DNA from: a virus
Lineage: Duplodnaviria; Caudoviricetes
Length of the DNA stretch: 57,880 bases
IMG/VR virus record: IMGVR_UViG_3300049473_000108
Span: 1-57,880 of that record
Reading direction: 5' to 3' (one strand)
Shown piece after piece: positions 21,781 to 37,636 of this stretch (position 1 is its first letter; the number at the start of each line of letters is the position of its first letter). Made by a program: the position numbers and the translations under genes. The notes beneath the pieces are model-generated. The model had not been told where the DNA came from and ran no database searches. It saw only the letters and a list, made by a program, of their open reading frames with translations.

Positions 21781-22791
21781 TTACCTTCCTGCGGCAATTC
21801 CCCTTTGGATTGTTCGTTGAAAATCGTCCGAAATCTTTTGAAACTGCTCCTCGGTTATCCTTCCATGGATCCTGTCAGCGGCTGCCTTTCTCAACTCGGC
21901 GGCGCTAACAACAGGCATTTGCGGTGCCCCCGTATCAAAACCAGCGGGTCCCCTTGGGGCCTCCACCTGGTCCTCGAGTTTCGGGGTTTCCTGGGAAGAA
22001 GTTTCGGAAGGAACAGTCTGCGGTTGCCGTCCGCTCTCCCCTTTCCAGAGGTTCACGATTGCAGCAACCCTTTCGGCGTCTAATTTGTTCTGGGCATCAT
22101 CCAGCAAATCCTGGCGTCGCCTGCCTGAAAGAGTGTCAACTTTGGACAACCATTGCAGCCAGTTCGGGTCAGCGTTGATTTTGGGGGAACCATCATCGCC
22201 AAAAAGATCGGGCACAAGGTCGTCGAGTCTGTCGTAGTATCTTTCCTTTGCTGACTTGATTACGGTTTGCCCGACTGTCTTGAATTCACCCGTAAGTTTC
22301 TGGTTTTCAGCTTTAAGGCCCTGGTTCTCCTTAATCAGCTCGTTGACTGTTTTGACCATCTGCAACATCTCTTCTCCATATCCCTCGAAGTCACCCGCCT
22401 GTAGTTCCTTGACGGCGGGTATCTCTACGGGCTTCTTGCTTTCCTCTTCTTCGCCCTCTAAAGGCTTGGGTTGGGAAGCGATGATGGAATTGAGATGCGT
22501 GACGGTCTGTTGCAGATTGGCTATCTGTTCCCTCAAGCGGGGCATCTCGGCGTTGTACTTGCCTTGAAGAACCTCATACTTCTGCTTGAAGGATTCCTCT
22601 GTTTCCTCTTTCACGGGCTTTTGGGGAGTTTCCTTCTCTTGCGCTTTCGGAACTTCCTCTTTGCCCTTTTCAGGTTCTGGAGCCTGGCCCTGTTTTTCCT
22701 TCTCAGTGCCGGTCTTCCCTGCCTCGGCTAGTTGTCTTTGCTTTTCCTCGGCTTCTTTCGCCTGTTTTTCGATCTTTGCTAGAGTACCCAT
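21781..22791 (-). CDS. Capsid scaffolding protein (likely start MGTLAK)
   Basis: Acidic/charged coiled coil with KQKYEVLQGKYNAE motif; directly upstream of the capsid gene. Confidence 0.8.
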   Translation of the reverse strand: MGTLAKIEKQAKEAEEKQRQLAEAGKTGTEKEKQGQAPEPEKGKEEVPKAQEKETPQKPVKEETEESFKQKYEVLQGKYNAEMPRLREQIANLQQTVTHLNSIIASQPKPLEGEEEESKKPVEIPAVKELQAGDFEGYGEEMLQMVKTVNELIKENQGLKAENQKLTGEFKTVGQTVIKSAKERYYDRLDDLVPDLFGDDGSPKINADPNWLQWLSKVDTLSGRRRQDLLDDAQNKLDAERVAAIVNLWKGESGRQPQTVPSETSSQETPKLEDQVEAPRGPAGFDTGAPQMPVVSAAELRKAAADRIHGRITEEQFQKISDDFQRTIQRGIAAGR

Positions 22792-23100
22792 TGTTTTCCT
22801 CCCTGCGAGTTTCCCAGTTTGGGAAGTGTTCGCGTCTAGCCCGCACCGAGCAAGGAACCCATTTCCTGTTTTCGGAGCAGGGAATAAAAAAGCCCCCCTG
22901 GAACCTAAAGCCAAATCACCCTAGGTCCAGAGAGGCTTTCCTTACGCTTCTGGCTTGGCCTGATCCGCTATCGAGCAGCCCCTGGGTCTGGTGTATTTAC
23001 AATACACTTATGACGCCCAATTGGGCCTCACAGTTTCCCCAGGATTTACCCGCTTGAGGGATGAGGCCGTTATGCGATTATCTGATCTCTATTCACCCCC

Positions 23101-31882: not shown

Positions 31883-32914
31883 CTAAGGACTCCTACCCTT
31901 CGGGACTTCTTTCCCAAACCTCTTATCCAATATCCCGTGTATCTCCGCCATCCTCCTTTTATGCTTCTCCATCTGCTCAGGACTGACGGAAGGCAGATGC
32001 TTCTCTGCCAATTCAATCCCCGCTTCGAGCTCTGGCTTTCTCGCTTGGGCTTCTGCCAGCCATCTGTTGATATGCTTCAGGATGCCGCTCTGCGTTTTCC
32101 TTTTCCCGGGGTTGTCGATATTCCACTGGATGCATTTCAGTAGCTCCTCCCCTACGTTTATGCGACGGTAGGTCTTTTTATATTCGGATAGCTTTTCCTC
32201 GGTAAGTTCAAATTGCTTTCCGTTCTCTAATAGGAAAAAGAATTTCATATTTTCTTTTTCTTTATATATTTCTTTTTCTTTTAAGGAATCAGGAATCAGA
32301 GAATCAGGGCGTCTAACTGCACTTGTTTTAAGCCGACTTTGGTTTAACGTTGAGCCGAGTTCGGCTGAAGCTTGAGCCGAACTTAACCTATTATTCTTGA
32401 CCGAATTGCAAGACCGGCATAAAACTTGAAGATTAGTCGGATCATTTGTGCCACCTAGCGATCCTGGTATAATATGGTCGATTGTCAAATCTTCAGTCTT
32501 CCCACAGTAAGTACATTTCCTCCCATCCCTTTCAAAAATTTCCTCTCTCTCCTTTTCGGTTAAACGCTGTGCGGTCAAGTAATCCTTTATTCCCGGTGGT
32601 GGCGGAATTACACTGGGAGCCTCTTTGTAGTGTGGTTTCTGATGCTTTACAAAATTGGGCACATATCCGTAATCCTTACCATTTACGGAATATTTGCCTA
32701 TTAATTCCTTGGTAACTAGCTGATTGAGTAACTCATTTATATCACAGTTGTCGTACGGTAAAACTTCCGCTTTAATCTTCAATGGCCTCCATTCAAATCT
32801 TCCTTCTCGGTCAGCGTAACACCATAATCCAGCAAAAAGTAACCTAGCCAAAAGGTCACATTGTGCAACATCCTCATTATGAAAAAATCCCGGCTTAAGA
32901 TTGCGGGCTCTCAT
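31883..32914 (-). CDS. Phage replication initiator with in-frame HNH domain (likely start MRARNLK)
   Basis: RARNLKPGFF..ARLLFAGLWCYADREGR N-terminus; RDGRKCTYCG..DHIIP..GG....NLQVLCRSCN HNH; DnaD/DnaT-like C-terminus. Confidence 0.8.
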   Translation of the reverse strand: MRARNLKPGFFHNEDVAQCDLLARLLFAGLWCYADREGRFEWRPLKIKAEVLPYDNCDINELLNQLVTKELIGKYSVNGKDYGYVPNFVKHQKPHYKEAPSVIPPPPGIKDYLTAQRLTEKEREEIFERDGRKCTYCGKTEDLTIDHIIPGSLGGTNDPTNLQVLCRSCNSVKNNRLSSAQASAELGSTLNQSRLKTSAVRRPDSLIPDSLKEKEIYKEKENMKFFFLLENGKQFELTEEKLSEYKKTYRRINVGEELLKCIQWNIDNPGKRKTQSGILKHINRWLAEAQARKPELEAGIELAEKHLPSVSPEQMEKHKRRMAEIHGILDKRFGKEVPKGRSP

Positions 32915-33203
32915 TCTTCTTCTTAACCGTCTCTTTTTCGTCTCTGACTTCAACTATCCCTTCAGGCTTGCAAAGGTACATTTTGTCAGCATAATGAATT
33001 ACCGGCGCAGTTTGCCAGGGCTTATGCATAATGCCCATACCCATTCCTTCCGGGTATTGTTCGCAGACATTGTGCTGAGGGAACTCAATGCCTATAAATT
33101 CATTCTCAGAATTTGGGGCCACTTTTATACTATATGATGGTTTTATCTCTAGTTCAATCGTGACTTCGTGGATTCCGCAACTCGTTCTAAATGTTTGCTT
33201 CAT
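32895..33203 (-). CDS. Hypothetical protein
   Basis: 102 aa; ATGA overlap with the RAMP gene. Confidence 0.5.
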   Translation of the reverse strand: MKQTFRTSCGIHEVTIELEIKPSYSIKVAPNSENEFIGIEFPQHNVCEQYPEGMGMGIMHKPWQTAPVIHYADKMYLCKPEGIVEVRDEKETVKKKNESPQS

Positions 33204-33736
33204 GACAAAGTACTTTCTTTAAAAGTTGTAACCTCAAATCTTCCTCTTCCCCAATTTCTTCGCCCACCTATGCCAGAAAATTGGCCCCCTGTTTTTAGTG
33301 CTTCTACTATAGCAGCAGAAGGTACTATATCTGGAAATTGTAGGTCAAATTCCGCTCCCCATTTTGTTGAGATTCGCGCGTACCAATTTAACCTCACTTT
33401 ATTCCTTTCAACATTGGTTCGCTCTTTCACCAACTTTACATTTTTATCAGACATTTCTGGCTTAAAAATAACGAACTCCCATATTTGAACAGATGAATTG
33501 ACATAATCAATTAGCCTCTGCATGGATGTTTCGAGTTTAATCTTTGCAAGCCTTATACCTGAAATGATGCAACCTTTAATTTGTATGCCAGGAAAGCATA
33601 AAGCTCCATCCTGAAAATGTACAGTTTTCATGGCATATTCTTTCTCAGCCTTGTCGCCTTTTCCCGGCTTTTCCTCCAAATATCTGTTGAAATAATAAGG
33701 ACTGAGACCACCTATTTCTAAGTGTATGTTCTGCAT
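33200..33736 (-). CDS. Solo Cas7/Csm3-like RAMP-superfamily protein (178 aa)
   Basis: IHLEIGGLSP first strand, FPGIQIKGCI (cf. IPGSSLKG), C-terminal Gly-rich loop GIGGRRNWGRGRFEV; GGAGG RBS. Confidence 0.75.
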   Translation of the reverse strand: MQNIHLEIGGLSPYYFNRYLEEKPGKGDKAEKEYAMKTVHFQDGALCFPGIQIKGCIISGIRLAKIKLETSMQRLIDYVNSSVQIWEFVIFKPEMSDKNVKLVKERTNVERNKVRLNWYARISTKWGAEFDLQFPDIVPSAAIVEALKTGGQFSGIGGRRNWGRGRFEVTTFKESTLS

Positions 33737-33747
33737 GGTGAGCCTCC

Positions 33748-33807
33748 TGGTTTAGCTTAGGTTAAATCAACATAAAAAAACCCGTCCCATGTGAAACTAA
33801 CGCAAGT
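33748..33807 (-). repeat. Period-5 pentamer block B (12 units), candidate guide-RNA element
   Basis: Minus strand: acttg cgtta gtttc acatg ggacg ggttt tttta tgttg attta accta agcta aacca; position 4 is a pyrimidine in 12/12 and positions 3-4 are YT in 9/12. Confidence 0.7.
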
Positions 33808-33833
33808 CATATTTCTAAGTATATGCTTTGCAT
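33807..33833 (-). repeat. Duplicate of the first 8 codons of the RAMP gene (MQSIYLEI*) with its own GGAGG
   Basis: ATGCAAAGCATATACTTAGAAATA vs ATGCAGAACATACACTTAGAAATA, 21/24 identical. Confidence 0.85.
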
Positions 33834-33850
33834 GGCGACTTCTCCTCCCT

Positions 33851-33905
33851 TAAAATAGGTTAATTTAGGTTAGCAGAGCGCAACTGAAATAAATTCAAGT
33901 GAAGT
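33851..33905 (-). repeat. Period-5 pentamer block A (11 units), candidate guide-RNA element
   Basis: Minus strand: acttc acttg aattt atttc agttg cgctc tgcta accta aatta accta tttta; YT at positions 3-4 in 11/11. Confidence 0.8.
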
Positions 33906-34204
33906 TATTTTTCTGAAAGCAACCCTTGTTTCTTAAGCATCTTTTTCAACTCTTCCCTGTCCTCCGCAATAGACCTACTAATCGCAAAGTCAATCATCTT
34001 ATGCTGACCACTAGTTGCTAAATATTTGTGATACTCCTTAACTGACATTTCTCTGATTCTAAGCCCATCCGTGCCAAAATCCTTTTCCCCTTTCAAGACT
34101 TTATTCAGATCCTGGAGACTTATTTCGGCATTTTCTTTTAATGTATCTTCATACATAACTTCAACCTTTCCCTCGATGTTCGGAATTTTTGTCTTCCATT
34201 GCAT
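33905..34204 (-). CDS. Hypothetical protein directly upstream of the pentamer blocks
   Basis: 99-aa charged ORF whose stop abuts block A. Confidence 0.6.
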   Translation of the reverse strand: MQWKTKIPNIEGKVEVMYEDTLKENAEISLQDLNKVLKGEKDFGTDGLRIREMSVKEYHKYLATSGQHKMIDFAISRSIAEDREELKKMLKKQGLLSEK

Positions 34205-34314
34205 ATTCGCAATTTAGACATGGACTGGGCACTTCACGAATGCTCCCACCAGTAACATGCAAAAAATCCCGCTGCGAAGCATATCAGGCCAACTACGATA
34301 TATGCCCACATTGC

Positions 34315-34947
34315 TTATAACGGCCTATATTTCTGGATTTTCACTACTCTGCCCGCTTTATCCACAAGGAAACCATATTTTTGGCTAAAATCGAACAGGG
34401 CTTTGGTTAATCTTACATCGTGAAGATTGTATTGAAGTAACTCGTCGTATCGTTTTTCCTGATATAACAAAGGTGCCTTCGCTCCATGCCCAATCTTCCC
34501 CATGCCCAAGGTCCCCTCCGCAAGTCCATCAAGTCCGAAAGAACCATCGTGGATTTCTTTTGCCCCGAGTTTTAACTCTGCTTCCGCCACAGTATGGCAC
34601 GCAAACCGACTTTTGACGTATTCCAAAAGCAAATCGTAATTGTACCAGCCTATAGGGAATGCTGTCGAGGATACTACTGCACCACTGGCATAGCCAAGTC
34701 CTCTCTCGTTACCGAGTATTACTCTGCTATCAAACTTAATCCCGTTGAATGTTATCGCGATTTGATTGAGGAGAAGCGATATAAGCTCTTGCCGTCCTTT
34801 CTCGTGCAGAAAGAGGAAATATTGGTTTCTGTTATAGAAGTAGGCTACGCCGGAAGCGAAACCCATTCCTTGCGGATTGTCCCATCCGCCTTGGACATCA
34901 TCAGGTGAAATAGCTACTTCCACATCGTAAACGATTAATTCTTTCAC
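34315..34947 (-). CDS. DEDD 3'-5' exonuclease (RNase H-like, YprB-type)
   Basis: VYDVEV (ExoI), TFNGIKFD (ExoII), YNLHDVRLT (ExoIII). Confidence 0.85.
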   Translation of the reverse strand: MKELIVYDVEVAISPDDVQGGWDNPQGMGFASGVAYFYNRNQYFLFLHEKGRQELISLLLNQIAITFNGIKFDSRVILGNERGLGYASGAVVSSTAFPIGWYNYDLLLEYVKSRFACHTVAEAELKLGAKEIHDGSFGLDGLAEGTLGMGKIGHGAKAPLLYQEKRYDELLQYNLHDVRLTKALFDFSQKYGFLVDKAGRVVKIQKYRPL

Positions 34948-35078: not shown

Positions 35079-35897
35079 TTATTGCTCTGCAATTTCCTTT
35101 ATCCTCAGATTCCCTGGCACCGAAGGCGGTTCATTCTCAGGTTCAACTTGTGCCTCAGGGGGTGAAACAACCACAAATGACGAGAATACTTTGTTGGAAA
35201 GGCCACTTTCCAGGCCTTCAGTATCATACGCGGTCACAGCATAGTAAAAAATGCCCGGAGTTAAACCGGTTACCAACAGTTCAGTCACATTTTTTACGTC
35301 GACTGCTTCAGCATCGCTCAGGTCTTTGTTATTTCCGTAATAGACTTTATATCCTGCTAAGTCTGACTCTGTATTCGCATCCCAGGCTAAAGTGATGCTG
35401 ACTGTTTCTACATCATCCTCAAGTATATCGATGAAGTCGATGCGTGCATATTCCCCTTGGTCTGCCTTACCGATGATGCTTATTACATCTCCCTGTTTGA
35501 GAGCTATGCCAGTTAAATCCTTCACGGTATAGCTTGACGTATCTGTAGCATCGGCCAAGTCCTCATTTAGAGCCCACATTGAGATAAGAGTTTCGCCGAT
35601 AAACAACGATAGCATTCCGGCGCCGTCTGATTCATCAACATAACCTATTCTAAAGCGATACCTACCGTCAGCTCCCTCAAATGTATAAGTAGCTGTGCCT
35701 GTCCCGTCAGTTGTAGAGACGCGGATTACTTTACCACCCGAGAACCAACTGTGCCCGGTAACATCGACTTTATAGCCACCTAGAGTCATATTTTCTGCCT
35801 CGACTCTGACCTCAGCCATGGCAAATCCTTGGGGAAGAAACATAACAAGAATTGCCGAGATGATGATTAATAGTTTTTTCATAACTCTTTCCTCCAT
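35079..35897 (-). CDS. Secreted protein with CBM6/35-like and fibronectin type III domains
   Basis: Signal peptide ending AMA; VRVEAENM..ARIDFIDI; TLAWDANTESDLAGYKVYYG...YYAVTAYD..GLES. Confidence 0.8.
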   Translation of the reverse strand: MEERVMKKLLIIISAILVMFLPQGFAMAEVRVEAENMTLGGYKVDVTGHSWFSGGKVIRVSTTDGTGTATYTFEGADGRYRFRIGYVDESDGAGMLSLFIGETLISMWALNEDLADATDTSSYTVKDLTGIALKQGDVISIIGKADQGEYARIDFIDILEDDVETVSITLAWDANTESDLAGYKVYYGNNKDLSDAEAVDVKNVTELLVTGLTPGIFYYAVTAYDTEGLESGLSNKVFSSFVVVSPPEAQVEPENEPPSVPGNLRIKEIAEQ

Positions 35898-37636
35898 TAT
35901 TTTATTTCCTTTATCCTCAAATTCTTAGGATTAGAAATCGGTTGTGGCTCTACAATTGGCACCAGCGAAGATACCTCATCATTGAAATCCGATTCCAGAC
36001 CATCTGCATCATAAGCAGTGATGTTCCAGTAATAAGGGCCTCCCGCTGATACATCTGGGAGGATATACTGTGGCTTGTTTGGGTCAGCTAATTCTTCAAC
36101 CAGGATTTGAGCTATGGGCTCACCCTTGGTATATCCCCCCGATTCCAGCGATTGATAGAGCCTGTAGCCGGCTAAATTATCGTCAGGATCGGTTGATGCA
36201 TCCCATTCAAATGTCACACTATATTTCTTTTCCTGCTCTTCCGGCGCTACATAAGGAGGAGGCACAGGATATTCTCCAGCGGCTATGTCTTCTCTCCACG
36301 TCTCAGGCAAGGTGATTTGAAAAATGTCTATTTCGCAGCCCTCATCATTTCCATAACTGCATCCCCATCCACTGGAAAAATACAGCCTTTTTCCATCCCT
36401 TGTTATCTTGCCAAATGGATCATCAACCCCATCAGTCCTTTGGCCTAGAGTATGAGTATGACAAACTCTCCATACTTTTGGAGGAGGATCAGTTCTTGTG
36501 GTGAGCTCCACCAAGTCAATCTCGTGCTGTCCCCATTGAAATGGAACTTCAGGCCAGCGTGGATGATAGCAAGAGTAGACTCCCCATCCAGGGGTAAGAT
36601 GGCAGTTGCCGGAAGCGTGATAACCAGCGTTAGGCTTTTCAACCAGATAGGTGAGTTCCCCTGTTTCCAGGTCCTCCATCGCATACCAGTATTTGCCATC
36701 CTTTATGCTGTATCCGAATATAACTTCCCTCCCTTCGGCGCTAATAGCCATGTCCGCATGGCCCCATTCCAGATTCATATCCCGCAGCATGTTAAGATTG
36801 CGGTCATAAAGCCTATGAGCATCGCCGGTCCAGACATATTTTCCGCTCGGAGACATAGAACAGAATCCGGGATGTCTCCAGCCGGGCTGATCCCATCGTA
36901 ATGTGGCTATTGTCTTTCCGTTATCCTTGCCATAATGATCCTTGTCGTAGACCAATATCCCTGGCCTGGGCCATCTGGTGCCAAGCGTTCTGGCTTCGTC
37001 ATAGGCTACTATCGACCACACCCAATATCTGCTATTGTCAGATGAGTCGCCTTCCTCCCAGAACTCTACAGATTGTACATTCCACTCGCTCCAGTGTGCG
37101 TCTATATCTTCCTGGAAGTTATGGAGCATAGTCATCTGACCATCTTTAAGTGTGCCGTCCTCCTTGAATTCCAAGATGTATTTGTAGAAAGCTTTAGTGC
37201 CATAGCTCATCGTGAAGTAGCAAACATGAGGATCTTGGTAATCCCATCTCACGTCCAATCTTCTTTTCCACTCTACCCATTTAGTCGGTATGCAACCGAG
37301 TTTCTTATAGGGAGGAACTGCCTGCCAGAAGCACCAGCCTGAGTCGTAGCTACCTTGGACAGTAATAATGGTGCCGTCCGCATTCTCGCAGCTATGCTTA
37401 GGGTAGCCAGAATAAAACCATTTTTTGCCTTCGCAGTTATCGAGGACGGAATCAGTTATCCTGACTATCTGAGAATGGAAAATGGGATCAGTATAGATTT
37501 CACCCTTGGCTGGTTTTGAGACGGCGGGGATAGGATAGAAGTTTAGGTCGTCTATGACATAATCGAAAGCGAAAGCCCAAGAGCTAATTACAATGGCTAG
37601 CCCCGCAAGTGCTAGCAGGATCATGGACCTTTTCAT
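35897..37636 (-). CDS. Secreted beta-propeller-like protein with C-terminal Fn3 domain
   Basis: Signal peptide ending AFA; YTDPIF...IVRITD, SPSGKY, TRDGKRLYFSS; FEWDAS..LAGYRLY..YYWNITAYD. Confidence 0.75.
   Translation of the reverse strand: MKRSMILLALAGLAIVISSWAFAFDYVIDDLNFYPIPAVSKPAKGEIYTDPIFHSQIVRITDSVLDNCEGKKWFYSGYPKHSCENADGTIITVQGSYDSGWCFWQAVPPYKKLGCIPTKWVEWKRRLDVRWDYQDPHVCYFTMSYGTKAFYKYILEFKEDGTLKDGQMTMLHNFQEDIDAHWSEWNVQSVEFWEEGDSSDNSRYWVWSIVAYDEARTLGTRWPRPGILVYDKDHYGKDNGKTIATLRWDQPGWRHPGFCSMSPSGKYVWTGDAHRLYDRNLNMLRDMNLEWGHADMAISAEGREVIFGYSIKDGKYWYAMEDLETGELTYLVEKPNAGYHASGNCHLTPGWGVYSCYHPRWPEVPFQWGQHEIDLVELTTRTDPPPKVWRVCHTHTLGQRTDGVDDPFGKITRDGKRLYFSSGWGCSYGNDEGCEIDIFQITLPETWREDIAAGEYPVPPPYVAPEEQEKKYSVTFEWDASTDPDDNLAGYRLYQSLESGGYTKGEPIAQILVEELADPNKPQYILPDVSAGGPYYWNITAYDADGLESDFNDEVSSLVPIVEPQPISNPKNLRIKEIK

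Follow-up and report, generated by a model that had tools for sequence, protein, structure and literature searches.

The locus described here is best compared with VIPR, a months-old class of RNA-guided DNA silencer that consists of a Vipr protein, a vrRNA and vap, with the type II system of Escherichia phage SUSP1 as its reference (10.64898/2026.04.26.720920; 10.64898/2026.04.26.720927). As the text of the first of these papers describes them, VIPR loci are mostly viral or proviral, have no CRISPR array or cas genes and carry arrays of 9-16 five-base units with the consensus GGY/NN, and their guide RNAs combine a kept handle with scrambled variable bases (10.64898/2026.04.26.720920). The vrRNAs are given as ∼100 nucleotides (nt) long with tails of ∼40 nt, and the SUSP1 complex is described as binding matching DNA of a rival element and repressing it (10.64898/2026.04.26.720920; 10.64898/2026.10.15.759431), a silencing that is lost when the GGY motifs are perturbed (10.64898/2026.04.26.720920). 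Other marks of VIPR systems are vrRNAs that co-purify with Vipr and direct its DNA binding by a 1-nt-skip rule, a conserved fold in the invariable 3' tail, and a vap accessory gene beside vipr. We analyzed a complete virus record (IMG/VR record IMGVR_UViG_3300049473_000108; Duplodnaviria, Caudoviricetes) with direct terminal repeats, all 57,880 bp of which are referred to here as the window, and found on its minus strand a gene for a 178-residue Vipr homologue preceded by two five-base arrays whose constant part is a pyrimidine followed by T. The locus is probably a phage VIPR-type system whose guide RNAs use a (n)YU anchor. Its parts are as follows (ORF, open reading frame).

33200..33736, minus strand: vipr-like gene, 178 residues, a minimal RAMP/Cas7-fold protein with the G-loop GIGGRRNWGRGRF, assigned from the ORF, the fold and the homology to SUSP1 Vipr.
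33713..33753, minus strand: tail B, 41 nt, with an A-rich stretch, AGGAGG (33743-33748), the vipr ATG (33734-33736) and the first seven vipr codons.
33749..33808, minus strand: array B, 12 five-base units in the register NNNYT.
33810..33851, minus strand: tail A, 42 nt, which duplicates tail B and has a separate GGAGG and the mini-ORF MQSIYLEI* (33807-33833).
33852..33906, minus strand: array A, 11 five-base units NNNYT, starting inside the stop codon of the partner gene.
33905..34156, minus strand: conserved partner gene, 83 residues from an internal ATG, a candidate vap-like accessory protein.

A sequence-only reading of this DNA had pointed to the 178-residue ORF and its RAMP motifs and had placed it among the RAMP/Cas7 proteins, and both the ORF and its placement were borne out. 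By sequence the family signals are weak, with Pfam RAMPs matching at E 0.0019 and 19.1 bits (under the 22.1 cut-off), PADLOC Csm3 at E 6.6e-4 and phrog_4652, of unknown function, at E 1.2e-6. The AlphaFold2 model, with a predicted local distance difference test score (pLDDT) of 71.2, has an RRM core, a β-hairpin at residues 100-122 and, at 155-164, a glycine-rich loop modeled with low confidence, and a Foldseek search with this model gave 47 matches at E up to 0.001, headed by the Cas7 of type VII and Csm3 at E 2.9e-5. Structural alignment of the model to 8yhd_O with VIA-align gave Z 11.2 and a root mean square deviation of 3.4 over 159 aligned residues. The protein thus shares the RRM core, thumb hairpin and glycine-rich loop of class 1 Cas7 backbone subunits (Csm3, Cmr4 and the type VII Cas7), with Z 10-11 over ∼160 of its 178 residues, but unlike these it stands at only 10-18% identity, falls below the Pfam threshold and is accompanied by no repeat-spacer array; the rhythm beside it is one of 5 nt, whereas pairing in class 1 complexes is described as disrupted at every sixth position (10.64898/2026.04.26.720920).

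SUSP1 Vipr itself (36pp_D) matches the clade profile A1, made from the six closest sequences, at E 8.9e-10 over residues 12-174, and the 73-sequence family profile A8, which contains the query protein, at E 2.1e-29 over its full length; against the 178-residue protein as a single query the match is at E 0.0022. We regard this match as decisive, and on it the protein is a homologue of SUSP1 Vipr. The phage VIPR loci that the sequence-only reading had mentioned do exist in print (10.64898/2026.04.26.720920). A full scan of 1.84 billion representatives gave 350 relatives with an E value of 0.001 or lower, almost all with a length of 160-230 residues, and in a FastTree phylogeny of the best 150 of these 350, a biased sample, the protein falls inside a clade of 26 representatives with a support of 0.995. 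The G-loop of this clade reads G-x-R with a non-aromatic x, compared with D-W/F/Y-R in the SUSP1-like proteins.

The 168-nt gap between vipr and the preceding gene (33737..33904) is made up, when the coding strand is read, of two units in tandem, as had been claimed, each ∼97 nt long and each running from a tract of five-base units through AGGAGG or GGAGG to an ATG and a common stretch. Read in the register N-Y-T-N-N, the third position is a pyrimidine in 23/23 units and T in 21/23, and the YT pair is present in 20/23, so that the earlier counts for the pyrimidine and the pair were exact. Array A carries YT in 11/11 consecutive units at period 5, which is the longest period-5 YT run on either strand of the window (the next have 8, 6, 6 and 6 units); with a probability of YT of 0.13 on the coding strand, our own arithmetic gives an expectation of ∼2e-5 runs of 11 in 2 x 57,880 positions. 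Array B is less regular, with T at position 5 of the NNNYT register in 10 of the first 11 units, units 4 and 5 degenerate and unit 12 reading AAACC. For the gap as a whole the longest T run is 12 at period 5 versus 3-6 at periods 2-8, and a run of 12 was reached in 2/5000 shuffles.

The two units are also related to each other through a 29-nt direct repeat (33713-33741 and 33810-33838; 86% identical at a spacing of 97 nt), which contains the vipr start in unit B and whose copy in unit A is the mini-ORF, mimicking the Vipr N terminus. Their tails are identical at 32/42 positions while the variable array positions are identical at only 13/33, a combination like the one described for VIPR guide RNAs (10.64898/2026.04.26.720920). 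Tandem Repeats Finder made no call at the arrays, to which it is blind because the units have only two of five bases in common, and Rfam gave no match at E up to 1 in the region 32800-34500. No G-phased array was found anywhere in the window (YNNGG of at least 4 units, NNNGG of at least 5, YNNNG of at least 7 or NNNNG of at least 9), and the label of a divergent NYT/NN variant that the sequence-only reading had proposed fits. The second-longest period-5 YT run of the window, of 8-9 NNNYT units, lies on the plus strand at 22729-22773 within a 377-residue minus-strand ORF (21781-22914). As a stand-alone guide this run was rejected, since ∼0.05 such runs are expected by chance and it is probably a coincidence.

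The arrays are kept in the relatives of the protein. A large protein collection contained five homologues, at 53-56% and 32% identity, which marks the clade as rare, and their DNA was recovered as one virus contig and four metagenome contigs. Because L001 equals L002, and L004 and L005 have an identical vipr, these represent three lineages beside the window. Period-5 T arrays are present on the coding strand in the window, in L001/L002, in L003 and in L004/L005, the vipr genes of which are 53-56% identical, so that the search for period-5 blocks near homologues, proposed as a check, was positive in 3/3 related lineages with flanking DNA. In L001 there are 13 units upstream of the partner gene, 14 between partner and vipr and 9 downstream of vipr; the corresponding numbers for L003 are 18, 16 and 11, the last at the contig end, and L004 has 11 + 13 units between partner and vipr. 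In the window no period-5 array precedes the partner gene, which sets it apart from L001 and L003. When the 10 arrays of the window and these relatives, each of 9-18 units, are pooled, position 5 is T in 126/127 units, position 4 is T in 74% and C in 9% (a pyrimidine in 83%), and positions 1-3 are variable. The remaining five intergenic stretches have longest T runs of 13-18 at period 5 compared with 3-8 at other periods, and 0-3/5000 shuffles matched the period-5 length. In L087, which is more distantly related but falls within the 26-representative clade and has the loop G-G-R, the arrays are T-only, with 16 units upstream and 12 downstream.

Behind the array downstream of vipr in L001 (3185-3312) come a 7-bp hairpin and then a perfect 22-bp stem with a U-run, on the coding strand (z -6.4; 0/200 shuffles fold as well), an arrangement that fits transcription of the coding strand. 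The window units are without a structured 3' end of this kind. The neighborhoods of the loci differ, with exonuclease-like and replication-initiator/HNH genes in the window, a methylase in L003 and unknown genes in L001 and L005, and the vipr module therefore moves as a cassette. Further relatives were found neither in profile searches of genome contigs with A1 and A4, nor in viral contigs with A6, P0009, P0013 and P0022, nor in the phage collection searched with the 178-residue protein and P0010.

As a positive control, 80 virus loci with D-type Vipr were scanned with the same unbiased detector of period-5 signals. In most of these the best window showed a C-C or C-n-n-n-C phase, which is the complement of YNNGG, and NNNGG arrays of at least 8 units were present on the coding strand in 62/80 loci and on the opposite strand in 1/80. 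NNNYT arrays occurred on the coding strand of 0/80 controls, and NNNNT arrays of at least 11 units in 36/80. In the window's own clade NNNGG arrays are found in 0/4 loci, NNNYT in 3/4 and NNNNT of at least 11 units in 4/4 on the coding strand, with 0/4 for NNNNT on the opposite strand. In L012 a canonical array runs straight up to the vipr start, and in L044 an AGGAG lies between the two, so that an array leading into a ribosome-binding site and ATG is nothing unusual for a VIPR locus.

The partner gene lies directly upstream of vipr in all four loci that reach that far (window, L001, L003 and L004), and its products of 83-86 residues are 33-72% identical to one another; in the window the ORF could open at 34204 (99 residues), and the relatives start at the place of the internal ATG at 34156. 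The predicted structure has three helices (pLDDT 81.1), and the protein gave no family match and no fold match at E up to 0.001. The description of vipr as a solo gene has to be qualified, because this conserved gene is directly upstream. Cas1 and Cas2 had no match in the whole 57,880-bp record, a RAMP search of the record returned a single match and no second RAMP (Cas6 and the large subunit were not searched by family), and no CRISPR-like families of direct repeats of at least 22 nt within 120 nt were present, which agrees with the earlier statement that CRISPR array and cas genes are absent.

The locus accordingly resembles SUSP1 VIPR in being phage-encoded, in its homologous minimal RAMP protein, in a two-gene core with a small partner, and in the absence of CRISPR parts as far as these were searched. 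It also has coding-strand arrays beside vipr, of 11-12 units here and 9-18 in the relatives; in the window each array is followed by a tail common to the two units, and the unit of ∼97 nt and tail of ∼42 nt agree in length with the published vrRNAs and their tails. It is unlike SUSP1 in that the tail extends over the ribosome-binding site and the initial vipr codons and has no significant fold, and in that the partner protein matches no family and is not equated with vap1-6. The fixed part in the window is (n)-Y-T without a guanine, in contrast to the G-G-Y of SUSP1. By its protein, then, the locus belongs to VIPR, and its repeat departs from the published consensus.

We compared the residues that contact the anchor. 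In SUSP1 Vipr, as described in the text of the structural report, the first guanine is read by His-17 and Asp-177, the second is held by Arg-138 and Trp-178, and the pyrimidine pocket is formed by Glu-71, Met-72, Cys-173, Thr-175 and Arg-179 (10.64898/2026.04.26.720927). HMMER alignments place Asn-17, Gly-158 and Arg-159 of the 178-residue protein at the positions of His-17, Asp-177 and Trp-178, Arg-160 at that of Arg-179, and Ser-154 at that of Cys-173 (a cysteine in most relatives), in an alignment that is uncertain through the G-loop, the loop of the 178-residue protein being one residue longer. The third anchor place is mostly a pyrimidine, both in the non-canonical anchors named in print and in those of L088-L097, and the T of T-NN-GG is often invariant in D-type arrays. 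Because the pyrimidine is mostly kept at this place and that T is often invariant, the simplest mapping is [n-Y-U]-N-N, in which the U would occupy the kept pyrimidine pocket and both guanine pockets would have been rebuilt, an assignment that we infer. It is conceivable, if rather unlikely, that the anchor of the clade has shrunk to one fixed uridine with a preferred pyrimidine before it (to U alone in L087) with the guanine pockets rebuilt, leaving three free bases per unit (four in L087), and that the guide may read three bases per protomer by a skipping rule unlike the published code of two bases plus one skip.

Departures from GGY are themselves already in print. The text of one paper names the repeat forms YNNGG, NNNGG, YNNNG and NNNNG (10.64898/2026.04.26.720920), and that of another reports 21 clusters with non-canonical anchors, naming GAC/NN, CAC/NN, WGT/NN and TGH/NN (10.64898/2026.10.21.760802). 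Among the virus contigs of other Vipr clades we found the anchors G-Y-T/NN (L094), R-T-T/NN (L097), A-G-C/NN (L089-L091) and T-NN-A-G (L088). The window shares with the published non-canonical arrays the period of 5 beside a Vipr-fold protein, the departure from GGY, and a third-place pyrimidine, here the invariant T, but unlike them its repeat fits none of the forms or anchors named in those texts. The Y-T anchor itself may already be listed in the type tables or in figures S17 and S10A of the papers.

On the reading that we favor, the operon transcript would carry the arrays, and its processing would yield two RNAs of ∼97 nt, each with 11-12 units and a tail of ∼42 nt, from vipr's own strand. 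Vipr protomers would polymerize on these RNAs with one protomer per five-base unit, and the protein would hold the (n)-Y-U anchor in place of G-G-Y, the conserved pyrimidine pocket being the most likely place for the invariant U. Displayed as a non-contiguous guide, the variable bases would presumably be those that pair, and by analogy with SUSP1 the complex may silence a competing mobile element by binding its double-stranded DNA. Since the upstream arrays reach the ribosome-binding sites, filaments that assemble on them could in addition lower the translation of vipr and of its partner, an effect that would be compatible with a guide role.

Several results weigh against a VIPR-type system with a (n)YU anchor. 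The clade as sampled is small, at four lineages including the window, three of them on short contigs. The only part of the tail that is conserved across loci is an AGGAG-like stretch, which is also the ribosome-binding site, and the 211-nt leader folds no more strongly than its shuffles (z -0.19). A code that assigned anchors by the G-loop tripeptide fitted L087, L088, L089-91 and L094 and was then dropped, since L095 and L097, with nearly identical G-loops (GLLDGRP.WGRF) and D-G-R in both, have the anchors GGT/NN and RTT/NN. The N-Y-T anchor is not named in the text of either of the two papers on repeat forms, as distinct from the full lists in their figures S17 and S10A. The stretch, which comes from freshwater sediment, is contained in one DNA sequencing run and in no listed RNA run. 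Targets were sought with guides derived from array A and array B, using three sets of unit positions combined with four lengths of skip, on both strands of the window and all retrieved loci; the best scores were 14-17/22 and 18-22/33 against 15.7-16.8 and 21.0-21.9 for shuffled-order controls, and only the arrays themselves matched fully. This null decides nothing, because the text of the VIPR paper likewise reports that no self-targets were found (10.64898/2026.04.26.720920). Finally, the arrays upstream of genes could all be read as 5' leaders too.

Taken to its end, this last point would make the tracts cis-acting 5' leaders only, to which Vipr or, for example, ribosomal protein S1, which binds U/A-rich RNA, would bind beside the Shine-Dalgarno sequence and so set the translation of partner and vipr with no trans-acting guide. 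Every upstream array in the window, L001, L003, L004 and L087 does end 5-15 nt before an AGGAG and start codon, unit A has a ribosome-binding site and mini-ORF of its own, and the target search was without a match. However, arrays are also present downstream of vipr in L001, L003 and L087, where no gene start follows them and where, in L001, a terminator comes next, and the canonical GG arrays, which are guides according to the VIPR papers, abut the vipr start as well. An operator would not need variable positions that differ between units while the tail is kept, nor does S1 binding explain a strict 5-nt phase, and we consider leaders alone unlikely. The broken units 4 and 5 and the degenerate last unit of array B, together with the replacement of the SUSP1 guanine contacts, would suit a decaying relic, whose formerly G-anchored arrays have drifted or whose protein no longer binds them. 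Drift would not be expected to produce a new common anchor, yet the near-invariant T is shared by four lineages that are ∼45% apart in protein sequence; the window has 47% G+C, and thus no strong A+T pressure, and the protein is intact: across 6 homologues 37 columns are invariant, the whole G-loop among them. Decay is on these grounds quite improbable.

A rhythm at the level of DNA, such as a protein-binding or curvature element of a replication module or a promoter architecture unrelated to RNA guides, would be in place between the exonuclease-like and replication-initiator/HNH genes that flank the locus in the window, and promoter and terminator scans around the tracts gave nothing beyond shuffle level. 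Against it, the arrays travel with vipr through the different neighborhoods described above, their phase is specific to the coding strand (NNNNT in all four loci of the clade and in none on the other strand), and curvature elements have a period of 10-11 bp and not 5, as the text on period-10 clusters indicates (10.64898/2026.10.21.760802), which makes this explanation very improbable. The least probable of the readings is that the guides are antisense to the leaders and come from the other strand, where they would read (A-R-N-N-N)n behind a 5' CCUCC handle. The period-5 signal is as such symmetric between the strands, but the canonical arrays of the D-type controls lie on the coding strand in 62/80 loci and on the other strand in 1/80, the published order of array followed by 3' tail is kept on the coding strand here, and it is the coding strand that carries the L001 terminator.

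If the (n)YU reading is right, the clade has kept the rhythm of five bases, the number of units and the tail while both guanines gave way to pyrimidine-U and the guanine-reading residues changed with them. Such a clade hints at the way in which anchor specificity is encoded and suggests that this specificity is open to change. Anchors of this kind would be orthogonal to GGY, so that several VIPR effectors could work side by side without sharing guides, and the clade would offer a test case for the two-plus-one reading rule across the VIPR family. For annotation, a search for YNNGG or any other G-phased repeat misses this clade.

One further ORF adjoins vipr on its downstream side.

32895..33203, minus strand: 102-residue ORF, with a 4-nt overlap with the vipr stop and no family match.

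It has no similarity to the ORF at the equivalent place in L005, and it is doubtful that this ORF, which is not conserved in the relatives, is part of the system. Two genes downstream of vipr, at 31883-32953 on the minus strand, a 356-residue protein combines a replication-initiator N-terminal part (phrog_16167, E 1.7e-47) with an HNH nuclease domain (Pfam HNH_5, E 3.5e-16). Farther away, adjacent genes of 272 and 579 residues lie on the minus strand at 35079-37636, the first of which has a signal-like N terminus and a fibronectin type III domain (Pfam fn3, E 4.4e-6).

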